Shown: positions 47,701 through 64,000, numbered from the stretch's first letter. The stretch: 64,000 nucleotides of DNA from a virus (IMGVR_UViG_3300025154_000052:32001-96000), one strand, 5' to 3'. The notes: a model not told the origin generated them from the sequence alone. Translations and numbers: made by a program.

Positions 47701-49116
47701 GTGGAGGCTGTTGTGAACGAGTTGATTCCCCGAACGACCGTGACCGAGATCTGCGCTCACCGTGGCGCTGCGATGTCCACCATGCGTGAAGCCGTGGCTG
47801 CTATGGTCCACGGTATTGAACTGGTTGAGAAGTCCGAATATCACGCTCAACATGCGTATGGAGCGGCGCACTTTACCCTTTCTGACCGGAGTGAGTTGAC
47901 AGCATACAAGCGCCTATTCGAGGGGATCGACGCTGTTGCATCTCTCAAGGCGTATCGCCAACAGGTCGACGCCCGGGTGTGGATGAATCTCCTCGCACTG
48001 ACCGGTATGGAGAGCATGATGGACCGGACGGCCAAGGATGAACTCTATAAGCAGCTCTGTGGCGACGTCCCCGAAGTCACCGAGGACACCGTCTGGTCGA
48101 CGTTCGATTCTCTCGCGGGCCAGGCGAAACTCATCTTCCAGCGTGGCCTGGCTCGAGCCTTCATCGACCTTGACCGGCGATTCCGATCACACGACGGCTT
48201 CAAGATTGGGAGCCGGATCATTCTGACCCGCGTCTTTGATGACTGGGGCAGTTGGTCCCACTGGAACGGGACGCGAGATACCATCTGCGACGTTGAGCGA
48301 GTGTTCGCGGTGCTGGACGGCAACAAGCCGAACCCGCGGGGACTGATTGCGGCCATTGATGACAGCAGGGGCGGCAGATACGGGAAACGCCAGTCATACA
48401 TGGAGAGCGAGTATTTCCGTATCCGCACGTTTCAGAACGGCAATGCTCACTTATGGTTCACCAGGGACGAACTCGTCGAGAAGGCCAACCTTCTCCTGGC
48501 CGAGTATTACGGCGAAGTGCTCCCGGACGGTGTCCCGGACGATGTCACCGCGAAGGACATCAAGCAGTGCACAGCGCTCTGCAAGGACCTGTCCTTCTAC
48601 GCCACCCAGGAACCGGTCGTATCGACCATTCTTGACGGTGTCTACTTCCCAGACGGTGCCCATGTGCTCGAGCCATCTGCCGGGACGGGGAATATCGTCC
48701 GTGAACTGCTCCATCGGGGCATGCGGGTTGACGCTGTCGAGGTTGACCCTGGCCGCGTCCGGGTGCTTCAGGAGATGGAGCGGCAGATTCACGGGTTGAC
48801 CGTCACACATGCCAACTTCCTGCAGATGGTTGCTCGGCCCATCTACACCCATGTCGTCATGAACCCGCCGTTCCACGGCACCCACTACATGCAGCATGTC
48901 ATGCATGCATTCGACTTCCTGGCACCTGGCGGGGTGCTCGTCTCCATTCTCCCCGCAACAGTCGAGTTTGGGGAGAGCAAGAAACATGAGGCGTTCCGCA
49001 AGTGGGTGGAGCAGCACAAGGACAACTACTCCGCGTTCCGGGATCTGCCGATCGAGTCGTTCGCGAGTTCGGGAACGCGGATCAACACCGTGTACGTCGT
49101 GCTGCACAAGAGGTGA
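47701..49116 (+). CDS. DUF4942-type domain fused to an N6-adenine methyltransferase
   Basis: YFRIRTFQNGNAHLWF; FYAT, VLEPSAGTG, VVMNPPF. Confidence 0.85.
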   Translation: MEAVVNELIPRTTVTEICAHRGAAMSTMREAVAAMVHGIELVEKSEYHAQHAYGAAHFTLSDRSELTAYKRLFEGIDAVASLKAYRQQVDARVWMNLLALTGMESMMDRTAKDELYKQLCGDVPEVTEDTVWSTFDSLAGQAKLIFQRGLARAFIDLDRRFRSHDGFKIGSRIILTRVFDDWGSWSHWNGTRDTICDVERVFAVLDGNKPNPRGLIAAIDDSRGGRYGKRQSYMESEYFRIRTFQNGNAHLWFTRDELVEKANLLLAEYYGEVLPDGVPDDVTAKDIKQCTALCKDLSFYATQEPVVSTILDGVYFPDGAHVLEPSAGTGNIVRELLHRGMRVDAVEVDPGRVRVLQEMERQIHGLTVTHANFLQMVARPIYTHVVMNPPFHGTHYMQHVMHAFDFLAPGGVLVSILPATVEFGESKKHEAFRKWVEQHKDNYSAFRDLPIESFASSGTRINTVYVVLHKR

Positions 49117-54349: not shown

Positions 54350-55636
54350 ATGAATCTGAATGAGCAGCAGCAAGCAGCGCTCGAGCAGATGGGAACGTTC
54401 CTGAAGGGGAAGGAGCGTCACTTCCTGCTGGAAGGATTCGCCGGCACAGGGAAGACGTTCTCCGTCCAGCAATTCCTGCTGTCTGCCAGGGTGAAAAAAC
54501 TCGCCATAGCTGCACCCACCAACAAGGCGGTGAAGGTAATCCGCGACTTCGGCAAGACGACGGGACTGGATGGTGCTCACTACGCGACGGTTCACCGGCT
54601 ACTGGGCCTGAAGGCACAGGTGGACCCTGACACCGGGAAACAGGTGTTTGTACCCGATCCATGGAACAAGACCACGCTCGAGAACTTCGACCTCGTTGTC
54701 ATCGACGAGGCGTCGATGGTCGGGAAGCCGCTGTACGATCTCGTCTGCCGGTACATGGGCAAGAAGACGAAGATCGTCTGGATGGGTGACCCGGCGCAAC
54801 TTCCGCCAGTTGGGGAGAAACACTCGCCTGTGTTCTCGACGTCCAACAGAGTACTTCTGACTCAGATCATGCGACATGGTGGTTCCATCCAGGGTGCGGT
54901 GAACCTCGTTCGTGACCGCATCGGGAAGGGTGTGTTACCGGAGTTCCTGTCCTGCAACGACGGGAATGAGGGCGTCTGGTCTATCTCGAAGCGACAATGG
55001 CTTCAGCGGCTGGAAACCGACTTCACGAGCCAATCGTTCAAGGCTGACAGCGACTTCGTGCGAGCTGTTGCATGGACGAATCGGGTAGTGGACTGGGGCA
55101 ACAACCGCATCCACCGTGCCATCTACGGCGACGATGCTAAGCCGTTCATGCCGGGACAACGAGTCGTCGCTCGAGACCCGGTCGTGGACGGTGAAGAGAT
55201 CCTGATGACCACGTCCGAAGAGGCGACGGTCATCACCGCAGAACCGACTACGGCGAAGGGACTGGCCGCCTGGGAACTCAAACTGGAGATCGAGACGGGC
55301 ACCGGCTCATCCATCATCTACGTTCATGCACTGGACCCATCCGCTGAGATGTCGTTCCAGAACGAACTCGAGCGACTCAGAGCGCGGGCACTGTCCGCTA
55401 CCCCGCGTGACAAGTCCAGTGCATGGAGGGCCTATTACGCCTACCTGCAATACTTCGCCCCGCTGGGCCCAATCTATTGGAGCACGGTACATAAGGCCCA
55501 GGGGAGTACCTTTACCCGGTGCTATGTCGCGTTGGGAGACGTGAAGCGTAACCCGAACCGACTCGAGCGAGACCGGTGCATCTACACGGCATACACCAGA
55601 GCGGCGAAGCAGTTGGTGATCCCGAGTGGAAGTTGA
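54350..55636 (+). CDS. Dda/RecD-like SF1B DNA helicase
   Basis: LEGFAGTGKT, APTNKA, VVIDEASM, MGDPAQLPPV, QIMRH, STVHKAQGSTF, YTAYTRA. Confidence 0.92.
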   Translation: MNLNEQQQAALEQMGTFLKGKERHFLLEGFAGTGKTFSVQQFLLSARVKKLAIAAPTNKAVKVIRDFGKTTGLDGAHYATVHRLLGLKAQVDPDTGKQVFVPDPWNKTTLENFDLVVIDEASMVGKPLYDLVCRYMGKKTKIVWMGDPAQLPPVGEKHSPVFSTSNRVLLTQIMRHGGSIQGAVNLVRDRIGKGVLPEFLSCNDGNEGVWSISKRQWLQRLETDFTSQSFKADSDFVRAVAWTNRVVDWGNNRIHRAIYGDDAKPFMPGQRVVARDPVVDGEEILMTTSEEATVITAEPTTAKGLAAWELKLEIETGTGSSIIYVHALDPSAEMSFQNELERLRARALSATPRDKSSAWRAYYAYLQYFAPLGPIYWSTVHKAQGSTFTRCYVALGDVKRNPNRLERDRCIYTAYTRAAKQLVIPSGS

Positions 55637-56387: not shown

Positions 56388-56416
56388 TTGACCCGTTGCT
56401 TTCGCCTCGGTACAAT
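56388..56416 (+). promoter_or_regulatory. Sigma70-type promoter for the candidate sRNA
   Basis: TTGACC-N17-TACAAT. Confidence 0.7.
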
Positions 56417-56423
56417 CTCACCC

Positions 56424-56522
56424 AGCGACACCAGAGTTGAACCGGGAGCCCTGAACCGGGGTCCCCTCCAAAGTTAACTGGTGAAGCTATGCCCTTGGGT
56501 CGCGAGGCTCAGGGGCTTTTTT
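56424..56522 (+). ncRNA. Candidate ~99-nt small RNA
   Basis: Promoter, long 5' stem-loop (CACCAG/CTGGTG, inner GGG..GCCCT/GGGGTCCC), then a terminator; no ORF. Confidence 0.55.
56491..56522 (+). terminator. Intrinsic terminator
   Basis: GCCCTTGGGTC-GCGA-GGCTCAGGGGC (11 bp with G-U pairs, GNRA loop) followed by T6. Confidence 0.8.
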
Positions 56523-56541
56523 GTTTACACCCCACGGAAAC

Positions 56542-56916: not shown

Positions 56917-58107
56917 ATGCCACGGGTGGAGGGCTACTGTCATCGGTGCGGAACGTGGCTTCGTATGGAGAAGGTTCCCGACCGTCGCACTGCCGACTGG
57001 CGATCTGCGAACCGCACCTTCACCTGTGATCCGTGCAAGGAGTTCATCAGACGAGAGCGTACGCGGATGGCAGCCAAAATCAATGCCGCTCGAGGCCGCC
57101 CTCCACTGGTAGGAAGCCAGTCCCAAATTGACTGGGCCGAGACAATCCGGCTCGAGGTTCTTCAGAAGGTGGAGGACGCCATCAATCGCATCTACATGGT
57201 GGACCCGGTGGCGAGTGCAGCAGACATATTCATGTGCCGCTCGCTTGGTGTGCAGGCGTGGGATCGGCTGCTGGTCGCCATCGAGGCGCTCGAGCAGCAG
57301 GACGATGCTCACTGGTGGATCGACAACCGAGAGTCCTTTCATGTCGGCATCATCGGTGAGATGGCTCGAGCCGTCCTGTCACCTGAGCAGGTGGAAGCCA
57401 AGGAGGCTCAAGAGGCGAACACCCAGGCCGCTATTGAGGATAGTACAATCGGTCCACCGATCGGTATCGCGCTTCAGTCTCCACTCCCCGTGGAGATTCG
57501 TGTTGGTTCGTCGATGGTGACCGCCCTTCTGCCTGACCGCCACGAGTCGTTCCGTGTACTGGTTCGGTCGCTCGGATACCGATGGAATCCAGACGTTCGT
57601 GTCTGGCAACGTCTAATCGATGATCGCAATGGTCCAAGCGATGACCGGGCCGTTGAACTTGCACATAGATTGCTGACGGCAGGCTTTCGGGTTTGTATCC
57701 ACGACTCGGTTCTGCGCCGACGAGTTGCCGCTGCCGAATTTATGCCTGAGCATACTCGGTGGATCATGCGCCGGGGCGAGGGCAAATATACCGGGTGGTT
57801 CGCCATCCAGTGGGCGCGTGGGGAGGATTACTACCAGCGCGCCAAGCGGCTGCCAGGCTCGAGATATGACAAGCCCTACGTTGTTGTGCCTTCGTCGGCT
57901 TACGAGTCGGTGGCAGATTTCGCGGAGTTGTATGACTTCAGATTCTCGGCTGTTGCCAATCAACTCCTTGAGCAGGCCGAGAAGGCGGTCCAGGCTACTC
58001 GCCTAGAGAAACTGGCCAAACGACTCGAGAAGCCAAAGCCGAAGGACGGGCTGAGAGAGATCCTGTCCACAACATCCGGAATCCCAGCCGAGTTACTTGA
58101 TGACTAA
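56917..58107 (+). CDS. Hypothetical helicase-partner protein
   Basis: L.GSQSQI.WA..IR motif; coupled to the downstream SNF2 gene. Confidence 0.7.
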   Translation: MPRVEGYCHRCGTWLRMEKVPDRRTADWRSANRTFTCDPCKEFIRRERTRMAAKINAARGRPPLVGSQSQIDWAETIRLEVLQKVEDAINRIYMVDPVASAADIFMCRSLGVQAWDRLLVAIEALEQQDDAHWWIDNRESFHVGIIGEMARAVLSPEQVEAKEAQEANTQAAIEDSTIGPPIGIALQSPLPVEIRVGSSMVTALLPDRHESFRVLVRSLGYRWNPDVRVWQRLIDDRNGPSDDRAVELAHRLLTAGFRVCIHDSVLRRRVAAAEFMPEHTRWIMRRGEGKYTGWFAIQWARGEDYYQRAKRLPGSRYDKPYVVVPSSAYESVADFAELYDFRFSAVANQLLEQAEKAVQATRLEKLAKRLEKPKPKDGLREILSTTSGIPAELLDD

Positions 58108-59533
58108 GACTGATCTCCTACCATTTCAGATTCCTGCCGTGGAAAAGCTTCAGCCGTTGCGTGTTGGGGCGCTCTTTATGGACATGGGGCTTGGCAAGAG
58201 CAGGGCCGCCATCGAACTCGTTGCGCGGCGGCAAGAGAAGATCAGTCGAGTCGTCTGGTTCTGTCCAGTCAGTCTGAAGGAGACGATTGAGTTTGAGATC
58301 CACAAGCATGTGGACACGGAGTCGCACCCGGTTTACGTCTTCGACGACAAGACACATCAGGGCGCAATCCCACGAGCGTTCTGGTACGTGATCGGGCTCG
58401 AGTCGATGGGTTCCAGCAGTCGAGTTATCCTGGCCGCTCGAGATCTGATGGACGAGAGCACATGTGTCATCGTGGACGAGTCGGACTTCATCAAGGGCCA
58501 CCGTTCGCAGCGGACCTGGTGGGTCACTGAGATCAGCAAAAACACTCGATATCGCCTCATCCTGAGTGGCACATCGGTTACCCAGGGTATCGTGGACCTT
58601 TACGCCCAGTTTCGCTTCCTATCCCCTCTCATCCTCGGGTATCGGTCATTCTACAGCTTTGCCGCGAATCATCTTGAGTACAGTGAGAAGTACCCGGGTT
58701 TGATCGTTCGGTCGCTCAACACCGGATACATCGCGGCGAAGATTGCGCCGTTCACCTATCAGGTGACGAAGGACGAATGTCTGACCTTGCCCAAGAAATT
58801 GTACGAGACGAGATATTTCGGAATGACACCACAACAGGAGATGACGTATCAGCAGGCGAAGTATGAACTCCTGATGGACGTGGACCCGGACGAGATGAAC
58901 TCGTGGGTCATCTTCCGGCTGTTCACGGCGCTCCAGCAGATCGTCTGTGGCTTCTGGAATCGACGGCCACCGCGAGAGAACCGGCGCGACCGTCCCGAAA
59001 TGGAGCACATCGATCTGCCACACTATCGTCTGGAGGTGCTTCAGGACGTGCTGGCGCGGATTCCAGGCGATGAGAAGGTGATCATCTGGGCCAAGTTCGA
59101 CTACGACGTACAGGGGATTATGGGCGCCTTAAACGCTCACTACGGAGCAAGCCAGGTCTCTCTGTTCTGCGGTAAGAACGCGGCGACACGAGATGAAGAA
59201 CTCGAGCGCTTCCGTGGTCCTGCCCGGTTCCTCGTTGCTACCCCGTCCAGTGGCGGGCGCGGTCTTACAGTCAACGATGCCCGATTCATGGTGTTCTACA
59301 ACAACGGGTTCAAATACAGCGAGAGGAAGCAAGCCGCTGATCGCAACTACCGGATCGGGCAGGATATGCCGGTCACGATTATCGACATCATCTGCAACGC
59401 TGGCATTGATCTCCGAATCATGGATGCACTGGCCACCAAACAAGGTGTGGTCCAGTCATTCCGACGTGAGGTCAAGAAACTTCGCGAGATGAAGGACGAA
59501 AAAAAATTCGCTGAGTTGGTCGCTTCGGTGTGA
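58100..59533 (+). CDS. SNF2-family helicase
   Basis: LFMDMGLGKS, IVDES, LSGT, QAADRNYRIGQ. Confidence 0.9.
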   Translation: MTKTDLLPFQIPAVEKLQPLRVGALFMDMGLGKSRAAIELVARRQEKISRVVWFCPVSLKETIEFEIHKHVDTESHPVYVFDDKTHQGAIPRAFWYVIGLESMGSSSRVILAARDLMDESTCVIVDESDFIKGHRSQRTWWVTEISKNTRYRLILSGTSVTQGIVDLYAQFRFLSPLILGYRSFYSFAANHLEYSEKYPGLIVRSLNTGYIAAKIAPFTYQVTKDECLTLPKKLYETRYFGMTPQQEMTYQQAKYELLMDVDPDEMNSWVIFRLFTALQQIVCGFWNRRPPRENRRDRPEMEHIDLPHYRLEVLQDVLARIPGDEKVIIWAKFDYDVQGIMGALNAHYGASQVSLFCGKNAATRDEELERFRGPARFLVATPSSGGRGLTVNDARFMVFYNNGFKYSERKQAADRNYRIGQDMPVTIIDIICNAGIDLRIMDALATKQGVVQSFRREVKKLREMKDEKKFAELVASV

Positions 59534-59540
59534 TTTCCTG

Positions 59541-59569
59541 TTGACGCCGAATATACGTAAGCGTATATT
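59541..59569 (+). promoter_or_regulatory. Promoter with a palindromic operator over the -10 box
   Basis: TTGACG-N17-TATATT; AATATACG-TAAG-CGTATATT at 59550-59569. Confidence 0.75.
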
Positions 59570-59601
59570 TAAGCCATACCACATCACATCGGAGATACAT
59601 C

Positions 59602-60018
59602 ATGGCCACCCAGATTAAGATTGAGCGCTTCGAAGGTCGGTCCCCTCGGTTCTGGTCCTTGATGGGACCGGTCTTTGCAGGTCGTGCGTACCGGAAGGAG
59701 TTCCCCCATCTGCACGACGATGAGGGCTATATCTGGTTCCTCGGTCTGGATGGTGACAAGGTGGCCGGTGGAGGCGCCTGTCACATAGTCGGCACGACCG
59801 GTCACCTTCACGGGATCTTCGTCATGCAGCCGTATGCCGGTGCCGGGCTGTATAGTCGACTGGTGAGCGAGCGGATCGATTTCATGCGCTCCAAGGGCGT
59901 CAAGGTAATCCGGATCAAGGCGTTCGCCTCGAGTGTTCCGGTGCTCGAGGCGCTGGGGTTCAAGGCCACAGGGAAGTTTGGGACGGTGGTCCCGATGGAA
60001 CTCAAACTGGAGGAATGA
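59602..60018 (+). CDS. GNAT acetyltransferase
   Basis: FVMQPYAGAGLYSRL...SVPVLEALGF. Confidence 0.75.
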   Translation: MATQIKIERFEGRSPRFWSLMGPVFAGRAYRKEFPHLHDDEGYIWFLGLDGDKVAGGGACHIVGTTGHLHGIFVMQPYAGAGLYSRLVSERIDFMRSKGVKVIRIKAFASSVPVLEALGFKATGKFGTVVPMELKLEE

Positions 60019-60183
60019 ATGATGTTGTCACAGGAACAGCATGCGGCCAGGTTCGCCTATGTCGCGAAGTATCCTCACCTTAATTCTATCCGCGACTGGA
60101 GGACATTCTGTCTCAATGCCAGCAGGTTGAGTTGCGCGGGTATCCCGGTTCGTCACTTGTTGGTGATTACGAGAGACTAGGCC

Positions 60184-60384
60184 ATGACGGTTCAAGAAGT
60201 TGCGGCACGACTCGGGACGTCGATCCGAGTCGTGCAGGACATGTGTAAACGCGGCGTGCTCGGTGCCGTTCCCCCTCGGGACTGGGATGTGTGCCCCTTG
60301 TGCCTCGAAGAGTATGTGCTGAGACCTCGGGGCAAGGGACGCCGGCAGCCGAAACAGGTATGCAGTCACAGGAAGGAAACGTGA
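60184..60384 (+). CDS. Excisionase-like HTH protein
   Basis: MTVQEVAARLGTS...VQDMCKRGVL.A. Confidence 0.7.
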   Translation: MTVQEVAARLGTSIRVVQDMCKRGVLGAVPPRDWDVCPLCLEEYVLRPRGKGRRQPKQVCSHRKET

Positions 60385-60551
60385 TGAGAGAAAAAGGAGC
60401 ATGGTACATCGAGACGTCGTCGGGGAGCATATATTACTACCACGTCAAGTTTGACGTGGCCGAACGGATGGCTCGTAAGATCGAGCGTGAGAGGGGTCTA
60501 CCTGAGTTCTCCCTGATGGTCCGGTGGTACGATGACTGGCAGAGGTGAGGT

Positions 60552-60845
60552 ATGCGTTTTCTTGTTGTACGCGCAGTGGCCCTTCTGCCGGATAATCTTC
60601 GGTTGGAGATTGAGGAGACCATCGAAGCGATTGGTTTCCATGGGATCGTCGAGCAGGTTGACGGGGTCGACTTCGATTACTCGACCATCCCAGGATTGGG
60701 CGATGGGTGCGTCATTCCGATTCCCGGCTTTCCGTTTGCGGATGCCGAGAACACTGAAGAGGCGATCACAGAGTACCGGCAGGGGCATAATGCCGGCGTG
60801 TTTGAGACCAGAGAGATGGCTGAGCGATTTACGAGGGATGAGTGA
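60552..60845 (+). CDS. Acidic hypothetical protein
   Basis: GAGGT RBS. Confidence 0.6.
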   Translation: MRFLVVRAVALLPDNLRLEIEETIEAIGFHGIVEQVDGVDFDYSTIPGLGDGCVIPIPGFPFADAENTEEAITEYRQGHNAGVFETREMAERFTRDE

Positions 60846-61495
60846 TGTATTACAGATGCACGTTCCGCGACTGCACGCAGATCCTGATGTGTCGGGATCT
60901 GGAGGACCCGCAGACGATAGAGGATTACCGCAGGTTGATGCCGCCTCGGGTACGACTGGTATACTCGGACCCGCCGTGGAATCCCGGAAATGCCACCTAC
61001 TGGCGCACGCATGCGCAGATGGCCCCTTGCCCGTCATACGACCGGTTTCTCGATGCATTCATCTCTGTGGTCGGGCTCGCGGTGGAGCGCGGCGCCTTTG
61101 ACCTACTCATTGAGCAGTCGATCAATGAGGCGCACAGCGATTACCTGCTACGGGCGCTCGAGCGCAATGTGGTGCTCATGCCTCTTCGTCGCAGATACGA
61201 GGTCATCTATTCGGGAAGACCGAATGCCCTGTTCCACTTCGGTATGCGTGACCTGCATACCGACCCGACCGGGATGTCGGAGGATGAGATGACTCTGCGC
61301 GCATGCGTAGGTGTATGGGCACCTGTCGGCTCGTGGGTCGTCGAACCATGCGTCGGCAAGGGCATGACAAGCCGGGCCGCTCACGCTCTCGGGTGGAATC
61401 TGATTGGCAGCGAGTTGGCCCAACACAGGCTCGATATCACGCTGAAATGGCTCGAGCGGCGTGGGTATCGTGTTGAGGAGCGGTATGATCCATGA
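60845..61495 (+). CDS. Small beta-class N4/N6 amino-methyltransferase-like protein
   Basis: YSDPPW (motif IV) precedes VVEPCVGKG (motif I) and IGSEL. Confidence 0.75.
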   Translation: MYYRCTFRDCTQILMCRDLEDPQTIEDYRRLMPPRVRLVYSDPPWNPGNATYWRTHAQMAPCPSYDRFLDAFISVVGLAVERGAFDLLIEQSINEAHSDYLLRALERNVVLMPLRRRYEVIYSGRPNALFHFGMRDLHTDPTGMSEDEMTLRACVGVWAPVGSWVVEPCVGKGMTSRAAHALGWNLIGSELAQHRLDITLKWLERRGYRVEERYDP

Positions 61496-61835
61496 CGCTT
61501 GGATGGTCTTGATAAGGCGCGAGTATTTTTTGAGGTCCTTCGCCCGCAAGATCGCCCAAGTGGACATAGTTTTTGAGTTCAACGGGGGCCCGATAGGTGT
61601 TTACTGCCCACATGTGGATAAGTCTGGCTTTTTCCGCGTCGGTCCGATATGGGTTCATCCGGACTATCGCGGCAAGGGCTATTGCAGCGCCTTTGTCGCA
61701 TCAGTGACGAAAGGTAAAAAGGCGCGCGCCCTGATCGAGGACACCAACGAGGCTTCTCAGCGGGCGTTCTCTGCCGCCGGATTCATACTCCAGGGAAGAG
61801 GGAATAGAATCAGTTCCTGGTGGGTGAAGCCGTGA
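61485..61835 (+). CDS. GNAT acetyltransferase
   Basis: IWVHPDYRGKGY and NEASQRAF..AGF. Confidence 0.85.
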   Translation: MIHDAWMVLIRREYFLRSFARKIAQVDIVFEFNGGPIGVYCPHVDKSGFFRVGPIWVHPDYRGKGYCSAFVASVTKGKKARALIEDTNEASQRAFSAAGFILQGRGNRISSWWVKP

Positions 61836-62698
61836 TCCACATCGGACTCGACACCGCCTCGAAATCTCGCGTGGTCGGGGAACTCTGCCAGCGCGAGGAT
61901 ATCAACCGCGTGGTTATCATCTCGACGATTGGCAGAGAGTTTCCCTGCGCTCACAGTCGCTACGAAGTGGTGACTTATGAACAAGTCATCCAATACGCTT
62001 ACTTCTATAGGCTTCTGCAGGAGATAGACAAACGGACGCTGGTTGTAGTCAACGAGTGCCTGCGGACGCAGAACCGGCACGACCTGACCTATAATTGCAT
62101 CCGCCACTTTTTGAACCAGGCCGGGCATGTACTGGTGTTCCAATACCTACCGCTGATCGACACCGCAGAGGACTTCAGTATCCTCTTCGACTTTGACACT
62201 CAGAGCCGGTGGAAGCGGTCGAAGTTCGCGGACCTGCCGCTCGAGGAAGCACGGCTGGAGGTGGCACCTCGACGGCTCGAGTTCAGCAACACCGACGTCC
62301 GCGTGTCGCCCTCGTTCCGTGCCCGCTACCTGGCCGAGAAGGAGCGGCTGTTCGCCAACCTGGGTGCCAGTGACCCCCACACGCTACCACGCAACCTGCA
62401 CCTGTTTACCGGCCGGCCCAAGTTGGGTGCTATGGATCCTTCGAGGCAGTACGTCTGTCGTAACGGGCGTTTCAACGAGCCCAGCCTGACCACCTATGAA
62501 AACGCCCAGCCCGGGCGGGAATACGCCATCTTCGAGTGGTGCCATCGATACATCGACTTCACCGACTTCCTTTGGACGACGGGCCAGGACCGATTTGATG
62601 TACTCAGCACGGACCTGCCGGTAGATCAGTGGTATCTGCAACGGTATACGGATTGGAGGGATAAGTTGGATGCCTGCTATTCAGCGATACAGCGATAA
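61832..62698 (+). CDS. Degenerate SF2-helicase-like protein
   Basis: LVVVNECLR resembles a decayed DExx box; no Walker A. Confidence 0.45.
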   Translation: MIHIGLDTASKSRVVGELCQREDINRVVIISTIGREFPCAHSRYEVVTYEQVIQYAYFYRLLQEIDKRTLVVVNECLRTQNRHDLTYNCIRHFLNQAGHVLVFQYLPLIDTAEDFSILFDFDTQSRWKRSKFADLPLEEARLEVAPRRLEFSNTDVRVSPSFRARYLAEKERLFANLGASDPHTLPRNLHLFTGRPKLGAMDPSRQYVCRNGRFNEPSLTTYENAQPGREYAIFEWCHRYIDFTDFLWTTGQDRFDVLSTDLPVDQWYLQRYTDWRDKLDACYSAIQR

Positions 62699-63797
62699 GA
62701 CGGTTTTGGAAGCTGCCAGGGAGCGCATCGCCTTTCTCTTCGATCACTACGAGACAATCCACGTTTCTATCAGTGGAGGGAAGGACTCGACGGTGCTTGC
62801 TCATCTGGCGCTGCTCGAGGCATATCGACGCGGGCGCAAGGTGGGCCTGTTCCTACTCGACGAGGAGGCCATGTACCAGAGTTCTGTGGACCAGGTCGAA
62901 TACCTGATGAGCCTGTTCCCGGAGAACTGTAATCGCCTATGGCTTCAGGTGCCGTTCTACCTGACCAATGCCACCAGTTTGACAGAGAGCCAGTTACAGG
63001 CATGGGAGCCAGGCAAACACAAGATCTGGATGCGTTCCAAAGGGGAGGGGAATATTAAGGCTCCTCCATGGGCTGGGCCTCCTAAATTCCGAACAGGTTA
63101 TTCCTGGCTGGATTTCTACGGCGTGATCGACAACTTCGAAGCCTGCTATGAGAACACAGTTTTTCTGGTCGGCCTACGAGCTGCTGGCGAGTCCCCCAAC
63201 CGGTGGCGCGCCGTCACCAAGAACCCGGTCACGGTGGCAGGTCAGGATGTCTACTGGGGCACTCAGAAGGGGCGAAATATCGCCTTCTACCCCATCTACG
63301 ACTGGAACTTCAGCGACGTGTGGAAGTACATTGCGATCAACGGATTGCGTTACTCCCGCGTCTATGACTGGCAGTTCAAGAAGGGATTCGGCATTTCAGA
63401 GATGCGCGTTTCGAGCCTCATTCACGAGCGCTCCTTCAAAAGTCTTGTAGAACTCCCGGAGTTTGAGCCGAAGACCTACGACCGGCTGTGCAAACGCATC
63501 AAGGGCATCCAGTTCGCTCAGGAGACCGGCAAGAACGCCAAGATGATGAAGTGTCGGAAGTTGCCGAAGAACTTCACATCCTGGCGCGTTTACCGGAACT
63601 TCCTGCTTGAAACCTACCCGGTAGCCGACCACAAGCCGACCTTCGAGCGGCGTTTTGCCCGACAACTAGATAACGAGTACGTGGCCAGGCAGCAGTGCCG
63701 ACAACTGGTACTCAACGACTACGAAAACAACCTTCATGTGGACAACAAGCCAGACCCACGTGAAGAGTTGATCGAATACTATCGGAGGGTGCTGTGA
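62670..63797 (+). CDS. IbrA/YbdN-like PAPS-reductase-family (PP-loop) protein
   Basis: HVSISGGKDS, LDEEAMY, VGLRAAGES.NR, YPIYDW...DVWKYI, MRVSSLIH. Confidence 0.88.
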   Translation: MPAIQRYSDKTVLEAARERIAFLFDHYETIHVSISGGKDSTVLAHLALLEAYRRGRKVGLFLLDEEAMYQSSVDQVEYLMSLFPENCNRLWLQVPFYLTNATSLTESQLQAWEPGKHKIWMRSKGEGNIKAPPWAGPPKFRTGYSWLDFYGVIDNFEACYENTVFLVGLRAAGESPNRWRAVTKNPVTVAGQDVYWGTQKGRNIAFYPIYDWNFSDVWKYIAINGLRYSRVYDWQFKKGFGISEMRVSSLIHERSFKSLVELPEFEPKTYDRLCKRIKGIQFAQETGKNAKMMKCRKLPKNFTSWRVYRNFLLETYPVADHKPTFERRFARQLDNEYVARQQCRQLVLNDYENNLHVDNKPDPREELIEYYRRVL

Positions 63798-64000
63798 AGA
63801 TTCTCTTCCCGTGTCTCAATACCTTCATGGTGCCACGTGTCCGCGTCGTGGCTAACAACTGGAATCCCAACCACGTGAGTTCGGACAAGATGCGGCTACT
63901 CATGCAGTCCATCATCGATAATGGTTGGTGTTTCCCTATTGTGACGGTTCATGATTCGGACGAAGACGTTTATCGTGTGGTCGATGGCTTCCACCGTTGG
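63794..64000 (+). CDS. IbrB/YbdM-like ParB/Srx-domain protein (partial, runs off the window)
   Basis: ANNWNPNHV..M.LL..SI..NGW.FPIV...VVDGFHR. Confidence 0.88.
   Translation, partial: MKILFPCLNTFMVPRVRVVANNWNPNHVSSDKMRLLMQSIIDNGWCFPIVTVHDSDEDVYRVVDGFHRW

Follow-up and report, generated by a model that had tools for sequence, protein, structure and literature searches.

The question raised by positions 56,917 to 64,000 of the viral sequence IMGVR_UViG_3300025154_000052:32001-96000 is what a run of genes combining two SNF2-related proteins, two GNAT acetyltransferases, a small methylase and an IbrA/IbrB pair might do for the phage that carries it. The window, that is the whole stretch of 64,000 nucleotides (nt) that was analysed, corresponds to bases 32001-96000 of one linear IMG/VR viral contig of 137,577 bp (CheckV completeness 87%; 57% G+C), and a further segment of this contig, L001 (contig 86001-106000), was used for reading past the window end. 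An earlier note on this DNA had proposed a multi-step pathway modifying DNA or nucleotides, probably for restriction evasion. The present analysis indicates that the region is most likely one variant of a widespread viral cassette acting on nucleic acid, the target being most likely DNA. The fixed core of this cassette would comprise four genes, encoding a small N6-adenine-type methylase, a degenerate SNF2-like protein of 292 amino acids (aa), IbrA and IbrB. Gene content, folds, motifs, strict synteny, natural fusions and repeated partner exchange are the observations from which this proposal starts.

The grouping of these genes was followed through 46 related loci (labelled L below), comprising 4 exact-protein look-ups, 30 viral contigs and 12 prokaryotic genome contigs, the latter spanning Chloroflexota, Acidobacteriota, Bacteroidota, Pseudomonadota, Myxococcota, and Thermodesulfobacteriota; their neighbouring genes were scored by tblastn. 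Wherever the contig continues, the gene of the 292-aa protein is directly followed by IbrA and then by IbrB, the IbrA proteins being 60-70% identical to that of the window in most loci and 54-57% in three divergent ones, and the IbrB proteins 48-67%. Since this order is found in every related locus that is long enough, the grouping is not due to chance. The methylase adjoins the triad in 36 of the 37 loci with room for it, its gene immediately preceding that of the 292-aa protein or immediately following that of IbrB, and it is present in all 24 loci that extend for 3 kb or more on each side. The neighbourhood check thereby extends the co-occurrence beyond the IbrAB pair, as the earlier note had anticipated, with the methylase and the 292-aa protein as constant partners of IbrA and IbrB.

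The 292-aa protein is, according to its predicted structure, a member of a new, unnamed family of degenerate two-lobe SNF2-like proteins. Its open reading frame (ORF) opens at 61820, and the start shared by the family is the GTG at 61832, which gives 288 aa. The family counts at least 658 homologues of nearly constant length and about 45-54% identity, forming 215 clusters at 50% identity in an exhaustive profile search; none of these homologues has a Pfam domain, and the protein is absent among 50,697 cultured-phage records (tblastn). Scanning viral contigs for close relatives with the single 292-aa protein returned nothing, the alignment-based scan yielded loci, and every match of an ESM Atlas feature search was below 0.9 and hence uninformative. 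The AlphaFold (AF2) model (predicted local distance difference test, pLDDT, 87.3) has two lobes as in SNF2 ATPases. When compared with known structures, it displays two RecA-like lobes with SNF2-type topology: VIA-align gives a Z of 17.1 with CSB (root-mean-square deviation, rmsd, 4.0; 284 aligned), 16.9 with SWR1 and 16.7 with INO80, Foldseek gives 4.6e-8 to INO80, and the Atlas structure search also lists SNF2 clusters. At the level of profiles, the hhalign match between this family and the neighbouring SNF2 family is marginal (E 2.9e-4), the segment VVNECLRTQ...FQYLP falling on SNF2 motifs II and III, and the protein matches neither the Pfam SNF2 nor the Helicase_C model. The canonical Walker A GxGKT and motif II DExx are missing from the family: the P-loop position reads G-x5-K, without the second glycine and without Ser/Thr, and motif II is NEC in 24 of 26 sequences and DEC in the other two. 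The alignment of these 26 sequences has 54 invariant columns. The name "dead helicase" given by the earlier note is too strong for this SNF2-like fold: a lysine of the P-loop and a glutamate of motif II are invariant in the family, and a GRxxR motif is kept, so that the protein is degenerate yet not demonstrably dead.

The SNF2 ATPase encoded upstream of it has intact motifs, with GTGKT, DES, and the motif VI arginines (Q..R..R.GQ) invariant in alignment A4, and is found in 18 of the 34 related loci having at least 3 kb upstream. The SNF2 gene of L032 (6016-8478) contains an interruption of about 1 kb, which falls in the query alignment between residues 35 and 34, in an ORF of 820 aa, and is probably an intein or another insertion. 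At least 12 related loci have a homologue of the 396-aa protein encoded directly upstream of SNF2. In its AF2 model (pLDDT 81.5), this 396-aa protein has a Cys4 ribbon at the N-terminus, then a helical region, a pair of small alpha/beta domains (residues 189-264 and 279-352, approximately), and a tail that is acidic. Its fold matches are weak; the best are with the damage-recognition domain of XPB (Z 5.7 and rmsd 2.2, with 57 aligned) and with the N-domain of T4 UvsW (Z 5.0), and neither a Pfam HARP match nor a HARP entry in the fold-match lists was found. SMARCAL1 with its HARP domains, XPB with its damage-recognition domain, and T4 UvsW likewise carry small tandem alpha/beta domains for DNA-structure recognition ahead of the motor. 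In contrast to these proteins, which the 396-aa model matches only weakly (Z 5.0-5.7), domains and motor are here separate genes, and a second, degenerate SNF2-like protein comes after the motor.

The separation of these genes is not general. In L025, the C-terminal half of the 396-aa protein is fused to SNF2, and a profile search revealed two proteins, P0184 (752 aa) and P0206 (787 aa), in which the SNF2 ATPase is joined to the 292-aa module. In a third protein, P0201 (1144 aa), hhalign assigns the first 377 residues to the 396-aa family (E 6.6e-38), and SNF2 and then the 292-aa module come after them; this protein lies in a prophage-like region where IbrA, IbrB, and the methylase come next. 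A word-index search for longer fused forms of the 292-aa protein gave none, the fusions being recovered by the exhaustive profile search. These fusions show that the 396-aa, SNF2, and 292-aa genes act as one unit. The SNF2 pair, which the earlier note counted as a full member, can be kept for about half of the loci, and for the genomes where it is fused to the 292-aa protein, but it is absent from the remaining loci.

Might the genes be mere neighbours in a variable region of DNA metabolism, with no single system beyond the IbrAB pair? GNAT1, the gene of the small helix-turn-helix (HTH) protein, orf53, and orf97 are without counterpart in any related locus (GNAT1 in 0/46 by tblastn), and a promoter-like site at 59541 splits the run. 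Against this stand, for the core, the 46 syntenic loci, the overlapping start and stop codons, and the natural fusions, so that as an account of the whole run it is hardly credible. As regards the four core genes (methylase, 292-aa protein, IbrA, and IbrB) and the SNF2 pair, it is refuted. It continues to hold for GNAT1, the HTH gene, and the two small ORFs, which occur in none of 34 related loci and whose membership in the system is not supported.

What lies next to the core varies. About half of the related loci have, adjoining the same four genes, the csf1-cas11-csf2-csf3 genes of the guide-less subtype IV-B CRISPR-Cas complex together with a small CysH-like protein, whereas in the present phage the SNF2 pair occupies the Csf position. 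Csf genes, identified from precomputed Pfam Csf1 and Csf3 matches and a weak Cas6 match, occur in 15 of 34 related loci. Among the 24 loci that reach 3 kb or more on each side, the SNF2 ATPase is present in 11 (usually with the 396-aa gene) and the Csf genes in 12, one locus having both and two having neither; a small CysH-like PAPS (3'-phosphoadenosine-5'-phosphosulfate) reductase is found in 11 of them, typically adjoining the Csf genes. Placed on an IbrA phylogeny (a quick maximum-likelihood tree), SNF2 and Csf partners are interleaved, and at least four switches between them are required by branches with good support. No Csf or CysH-like gene was detected in the whole 137.6-kb contig by tblastn with queries from L003, L005, and L006, a search that a divergent Csf could escape. 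Type IV-B genes have been reported in viruses (PMC10848311), and the CasCysH or CysH-like partner of type IV-B is described as lacking the catalytic cysteine and as being of unknown function (PMC8175902). In the type IV-B literature examined, IbrAB, the methylase, and the 292-aa protein are not mentioned, and the literature searched contained no paper describing the four-gene core of methylase, 292-aa protein, IbrA, and IbrB.

The Csf partner raises the possibility that the target is RNA, be it tRNA, mRNA, or small RNA, with IbrA working in the manner of PP-loop enzymes that modify tRNA, and with the RNA brought in by the Csf complex or by SNF2. Many PP-loop enzymes modify tRNA bases. In L009, L041, and L042 (L009 and L041 being near-identical), a gene for an Rv2179c-like 3'-5' exoribonuclease (6.8e-53; L009:8304-8843) is inserted between IbrA and IbrB, which may hint at an RNA or an adenylated intermediate. 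In addition, Csf complexes of type IV-B are reported to form on cellular RNA of heterogeneous nature (PMC7937560). The methylase family is nevertheless homologous to DNA methylases, ParB/Srx and SNF2 proteins are typically directed at DNA, and the anti-Dnd precedent discussed below concerns DNA, which makes an RNA target highly improbable.

Turning to IbrA and IbrB, IbrA1 has the architecture expected of IbrA, a PAPS_reduct domain followed by DUF3440 over about 370 aa (PF01507 9.6e-10, PF11922 3.1e-9), and so does the IbrA2 found past the window end (PF01507 8e-15, PF11922 6e-13, phrog_2302 5e-92). Each is coupled to an adjacent small ParB_N protein, IbrB1 overlapping the end of IbrA1 by 4 nt and IbrB2 doing likewise with IbrA2. 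This is the two-domain PP-loop IbrA and adjoining small ParB_N protein of the known IbrA/IbrB (YbdN/YbdM-type) pairs; unlike these, the pair of the present lineage is locked to the 292-aa protein and the small methylase, an arrangement not found in the 50,697 cultured-phage records. Across 42 aligned IbrA sequences the SxSGGKDS PP-loop is invariant and many Trp, Arg, and acidic positions are kept, and no cysteine is conserved at 90%. The absence of a conserved cysteine leaves sulfur transfer unsupported, and the thiolation step suggested by the earlier note was rejected on this ground. IbrA also falls short of the family-level scores of the DndC/SspD proteins (TIGR03183 22 bits against a cut-off of 290; PADLOC DndC 20-25 bits over short stretches) and of the CysH PAPS reductases (TIGR00434 22-26 bits against a cut-off of 165; no conserved cysteine), and its BrxP scores are likewise far below the cut-offs. 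No PADLOC or NCBIfam model exceeded its cut-off for the core proteins, IbrB1 and IbrB2 matching no PADLOC model at all. IbrB keeps a DGFHR motif and shows distant similarity to ParB/Noc proteins that bind CTP and to SerK, a serine kinase with the ParB/Srx fold.

The methylase belongs to the beta class of N6-adenine/N4-cytosine methyltransferases (PF01555), with motif IV, (D/S)PP(Y/F/W), N-terminal to motif I. As a single sequence it scores below the Pfam cut-off (19.8 against 26.7 bits). The profile of its family matches M1.HpyAVI/DpnA (5hek, 3.5e-7) and then MboIIA, CcrM, and RsrI, the further solved entries being 1g60 at 1e-5, 6pbd at 1.5e-5, and 1eg2 at 1.8e-4; DPP is invariant or nearly so and CxGxG invariant, and the methylase is by sequence homologous to DNA N6-adenine methylases. 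Its 217 aa leave no space for a separate target-recognition domain, for which the earlier note had seen little room. The two acetyltransferases match generic acetyltransferase families only, and their assignment to the system is retained in part: the GNAT2-type gene, which lies between the methylase and the 292-aa gene here and in the same slot in L021 and L026, is an optional accessory found in about a quarter of the loci, while GNAT1 is particular to this phage. Other GNATs are embedded in the cassette in L018, L045, L032, L007, L011, L029, and L035. Among cultured phages, GNAT2 has a single match, in the Burkholderia jumbo phage FLC9, whose neighbouring genes are all annotated as hypothetical proteins and whose context is therefore uninformative.

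IbrA and IbrB homologues are found in 218-223 cultured-phage records, with up to 39-43% identity. A compact SNF2 ATPase of about 400 aa (Pfam) stands directly upstream of IbrA/IbrB in the Streptococcus thermophilus phage CHPC1148 and the Flavobacterium phage FCL-2, a gene annotated as DNA helicase does so in the Streptococcus equinus phage PY4, and the Arthrobacter phage Waltz has a PAPS reductase followed by a small protein and a methyltransferase. The gene upstream of IbrA in Nebkiss encodes a PD-(D/E)XK protein (Pfam), and no significant match emerged when this gene and its counterparts in CHPC1148 and FCL-2 were compared with the 292-aa family by hhalign. Given the SNF2 genes upstream of IbrAB in cultured phages, the uncultured lineage seems to have built on a general SNF2-IbrA-IbrB theme, turning a degenerate copy of SNF2 into a fixed adaptor. 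Besides, IbrAB adjoins the large terminase, or lies in the terminase-portal interval, in the Mycobacterium phage Phlyer (L052, 1-5489), in Waltz (L053), and in FCL-2 (L037), which suggests an action on DNA around packaging. Other copies of the cassette are integrated: L043, L044, and L056 lie in prophages, L044 being the cultured isolate Bergeyella porcorum CECT 9006, whose cassette of SNF2, 292-aa protein, IbrA, IbrB, and methylase is located at NZ_JBHMFD010000012.1, 145670-166545, in a 308-kb contig.

These prophage loci fit a restriction-like exclusion system directed at competing mobile elements, in which the methylase would mark self and IbrB, as a ParB-type nuclease or NTPase, would attack unmarked DNA together with IbrA and the SNF2 proteins. 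The methylase invariably accompanies the core, which is the hallmark of a system that marks its own DNA; in the PADLOC comparison, the helicases ZorD and DpdE, both from defence systems, come closest to the SNF2 ATPase; and half of the relatives carry type IV-B Cas genes, of a CRISPR type that has been associated with mobile elements competing with one another. This interpretation is nonetheless unlikely: no nuclease domain is recognisable apart from ParB/Srx, no PADLOC model is significant for the core proteins, the sole experimental precedent favours anti-defence, and IbrAB with SNF2 also occurs in FCL-2 and Moineauvirus, which we take to be strictly lytic phages, and defence cargo is unusual in such phages.

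That precedent comes from Vibrio crassostreae podoviruses, in which a two-gene insert particular to one group of these phages, transferred as a block, confers anti-Dnd activity; its larger gene (p0018, 479 aa) encodes a PAPS-reductase domain fused to a Dam methylase of small size, about 178 aa (bioRxiv 10.1101/2021.05.05.442762). Likened by description, the p0018 insert and the present cassette bring together the same two enzyme types, a PAPS-reductase-family protein and a small N6-adenine methylase. In p0018, however, both domains are in one protein, and no ParB, SNF2, or DUF3440 is reported there. PAPS reductases in operons associated with anti-CRISPRs are noted in a 2026 paper in Nucleic Acids Research, which cites Piel et al. 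2022, the work whose preprint describes the anti-Dnd insert. This insert is the only functional precedent, and it gives the restriction-evasion role advanced for this locus an experimental parallel. The Dnd and Ssp systems themselves (DndB ParB/Srx-like, DndC/SspD PAPS-reductase-like) likewise combine a PAPS-reductase-family ATP pyrophosphatase, a ParB/Srx protein, and a DNA-acting ATPase. The present locus differs from them in that IbrA has no conserved cysteine and reaches 20-25 bits on DndC models, and in that no cysteine desulfurase, DndD, or DndE is found nearby.

The best reading of these data, which we would put at slightly short of an even chance, is that of an ATP-dependent nucleic-acid modification machine for counter-defence, whose catalytic core is fixed and whose access module, SNF2 or Csf, can be exchanged. 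The access module would open DNA or track along it; here it would consist of the active SNF2 motor and the 396-aa protein as its structure-recognition partner, and elsewhere of the type IV-B Csf ribonucleoprotein. The degenerate SNF2-like protein would couple this module to IbrA and IbrB. As a cysteine-less PP-loop ATP pyrophosphatase, IbrA should adenylate its substrate, and IbrB, with its ParB/Srx fold, should bind DNA and use a nucleotide, as a clamp, a nickase, or a kinase. Together with the methylase, the two would chemically mark the exposed nucleic acid, to which a GNAT might add an acyl group in some variants, and the purpose would be to keep restriction-type defences of the host away from the phage genome. 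Like the multi-step adenylation/acylation/methylation pathway of the earlier note, the substrate, chemistry, step order, and counter-defence role given here are what we infer from these elements. What speaks for the modification machine is the strict synteny, the natural fusions, the SNF2 genes upstream of IbrAB in cultured phages, and the nearly exclusive, interleaved SNF2 and Csf partners; in addition, the homology of the methylase to DNA N6-adenine methylases, the invariant PP-loop of IbrA, the anti-Dnd precedent, and a surrounding region rich in DNA-modification genes (DpdA and a DUF4942 methylase) point the same way. That the core would be a self-contained nucleic-acid modification engine, with the SNF2 motor and its partner or the Csf complex of type IV-B as interchangeable access modules, is a bolder proposition and a doubtful one.

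Several points weigh against the modification machine. Its chemistry has been reasoned out, none having been observed, and IbrA has no solved or characterised close relative, the closest solved sequence being CysD (E 0.012). The combination of methylase, SNF2, and ParB-type protein also resembles restriction-like defence systems, and since Csf complexes bind RNA, the target could be RNA. The related loci are not phylogenetically independent, some being near-duplicates, and rows L013 and L027 of the quick IbrA tree come from faulty ORF calls. Finally, databases annotate IbrAB as a co-activator of prophage gene expression and not as a modification enzyme. This annotation would fit a DNA-remodelling, transcription-activating machine, in which IbrA/IbrB and SNF2 would switch on phage or prophage genes, for instance by displacing silencing proteins, with no covalent change beyond methylation. 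SNF2 ATPases do remodel protein-DNA complexes, and the operon has its own HTH gene and an operator-like palindrome. A PP-loop ATP pyrophosphatase and a methylase are, on the other hand, catalytic modules without an obvious part in remodelling, and the cassette often adjoins packaging genes, not regulatory regions; a remodelling machine is therefore distinctly unlikely.

What gives the modification machine its interest is that the biochemistry of IbrAB, whose pairs occur in hundreds of cultured phages, and that of type IV-B are both at stake. One IbrAB lineage is locked to a methylase and a previously unnamed SNF2-like family, and its core has repeatedly swapped an SNF2 motor for a Csf complex, so that both problems become testable with one small cassette. 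If the access module is indeed interchangeable, type IV-B CRISPR-Cas would gain a function, the delivery of a covalent modification instead of cleavage; if the core is indeed a modification engine, IbrA/IbrB would carry out a new ATP-dependent, cysteine-independent modification of DNA or RNA. A new DNA modification as the product would bear on phage resistance to restriction and on the reading of modified DNA in sequencing data. The Bergeyella porcorum CECT 9006 prophage is a tractable experimental source of the cassette, and the lytic S. thermophilus and Flavobacterium phages are tractable sources of the simpler SNF2-IbrA-IbrB form.

Coordinates of the genes and of the promoter-like site in the run, in window positions (the domain, fold, and promoter assignments are predictions)
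Feature	Coordinates	Strand	Remarks
396-aa protein	56917..58107	+	phrog_16123 only; no Pfam match
SNF2 ATPase	58097..59533	+	SNF2-rel_dom 5.5e-14, Helicase_C 1.9e-9, phrog_62 8e-89; start overlaps preceding gene by 11 nt
Promoter-like site TTGACG-17-TATATT	59541..59569	+	consensus scan, 10/12 matches; putative function
GNAT1, acetyltransferase fold	59602..60018	+	Acetyltransf_1 1.6e-10
53-aa ORF (orf53)	60019..60180	+	no homologues found
Small HTH_17 protein	60184..60384	+	HTH_17 1e-5, 26.2 bits, just below cut-off 27
97-aa ORF (orf97)	60552..60845	+	stop overlaps methylase start
Small beta-class amino-methyltransferase, 217 aa	60842..61495	+	motif IV DPPW; motif I ExCxGxG near C-terminus
GNAT2, acetyltransferase fold	61461..61835	+	Acetyltransf_7 and Acetyltransf_1
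292-aa protein, degenerate SNF2-like	61832..62698	+	no Pfam/PHROG match; two-lobe fold model
IbrA1	62670..63797	+	PAPS_reduct + DUF3440; PP-loop SGGKDS; phrog_2302 5e-80
IbrB1, ParB/Srx fold	63794..64000, on to window-equivalent 64300	+	ParB_N 3.5e-5, phrog_2159 2.8e-43; DGFHR motif

The run sits within a plus-strand block of DNA-metabolism genes, and a megablast comparison of the region with cultured phages gave no match. ORF listing together with Pfam and PHROG scans located every gene named in the earlier note, on the plus strand, and added two small ORFs that it had missed (60019-60180 and 60552-60845). Its description of a tightly coupled run applies from 60552 on, where the genes overlap or abut throughout, but not upstream, where a 68-nt gap with the promoter-like site and a 167-nt gap at 60385-60551 occur. 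As this promoter-like site precedes GNAT1, the SNF2 pair may be transcribed separately. Its -10 hexamer is covered by a perfect 8-bp palindrome (AATATACG / CGTATATT, 4-nt spacer), a candidate operator judging from its sequence, and the HTH_17 protein is a candidate regulator of the operon. At the other end, the run does continue off the window, as had been expected, with the remainder of IbrB1 and, directly after it, the second pair, IbrA2/IbrB2 (L001:10267-11933, window-equivalent 64267-65933). IbrA2 is 46% and IbrB2 44% identical to IbrA1 and IbrB1, respectively, so that they are divergent paralogues and not a recent duplicate; the second pair comes without a second 292-aa gene, whereas L034 and L035 have a full tandem second triad.

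Past IbrA2/IbrB2, five ORFs of no assigned function precede a gene for the 7-deazaguanine DNA transglycosylase DpdA (PF23859, 1.1e-68), at L001:14874-15821 (contig 100874-101821), about 5 kb beyond the run. DpdA was considered as a general part of the system and rejected, lying near the core in 1 of the 46 loci. As for the Dpd system as a whole, in which DpdA goes with the ParB-like ATPase DpdB and with preQ0 synthesis, neither IbrB1 nor IbrB2 matched a PADLOC model, the preQ0 synthesis genes QueC, FolE, and QueD were not found in the 87%-complete contig, their sole echo being a 12.7-bit PP-loop match on IbrA2, and the phage may therefore rely on preQ0/preQ1 of the host. Upstream of the run, a second modification-type enzyme of the region is encoded at window 47701-49116, a protein of 471 aa with DUF4942 (7.6e-47) and a C-terminal S-adenosylmethionine-dependent methyltransferase domain. 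Nearer to the run, at window 54350-55636, lies an SF1 helicase (AAA_30 2e-20, UvrD_C_2) that has no counterpart near the cassette in related loci. Lastly, just upstream of the SNF2 transcription unit, an ORF-free unit at window 56388-56523 has a promoter-like TTGACC-17-TACAAT and a strong terminator-like hairpin at window 56491-56516 (11 pairs, then a T-run), and is on these features a candidate small RNA.

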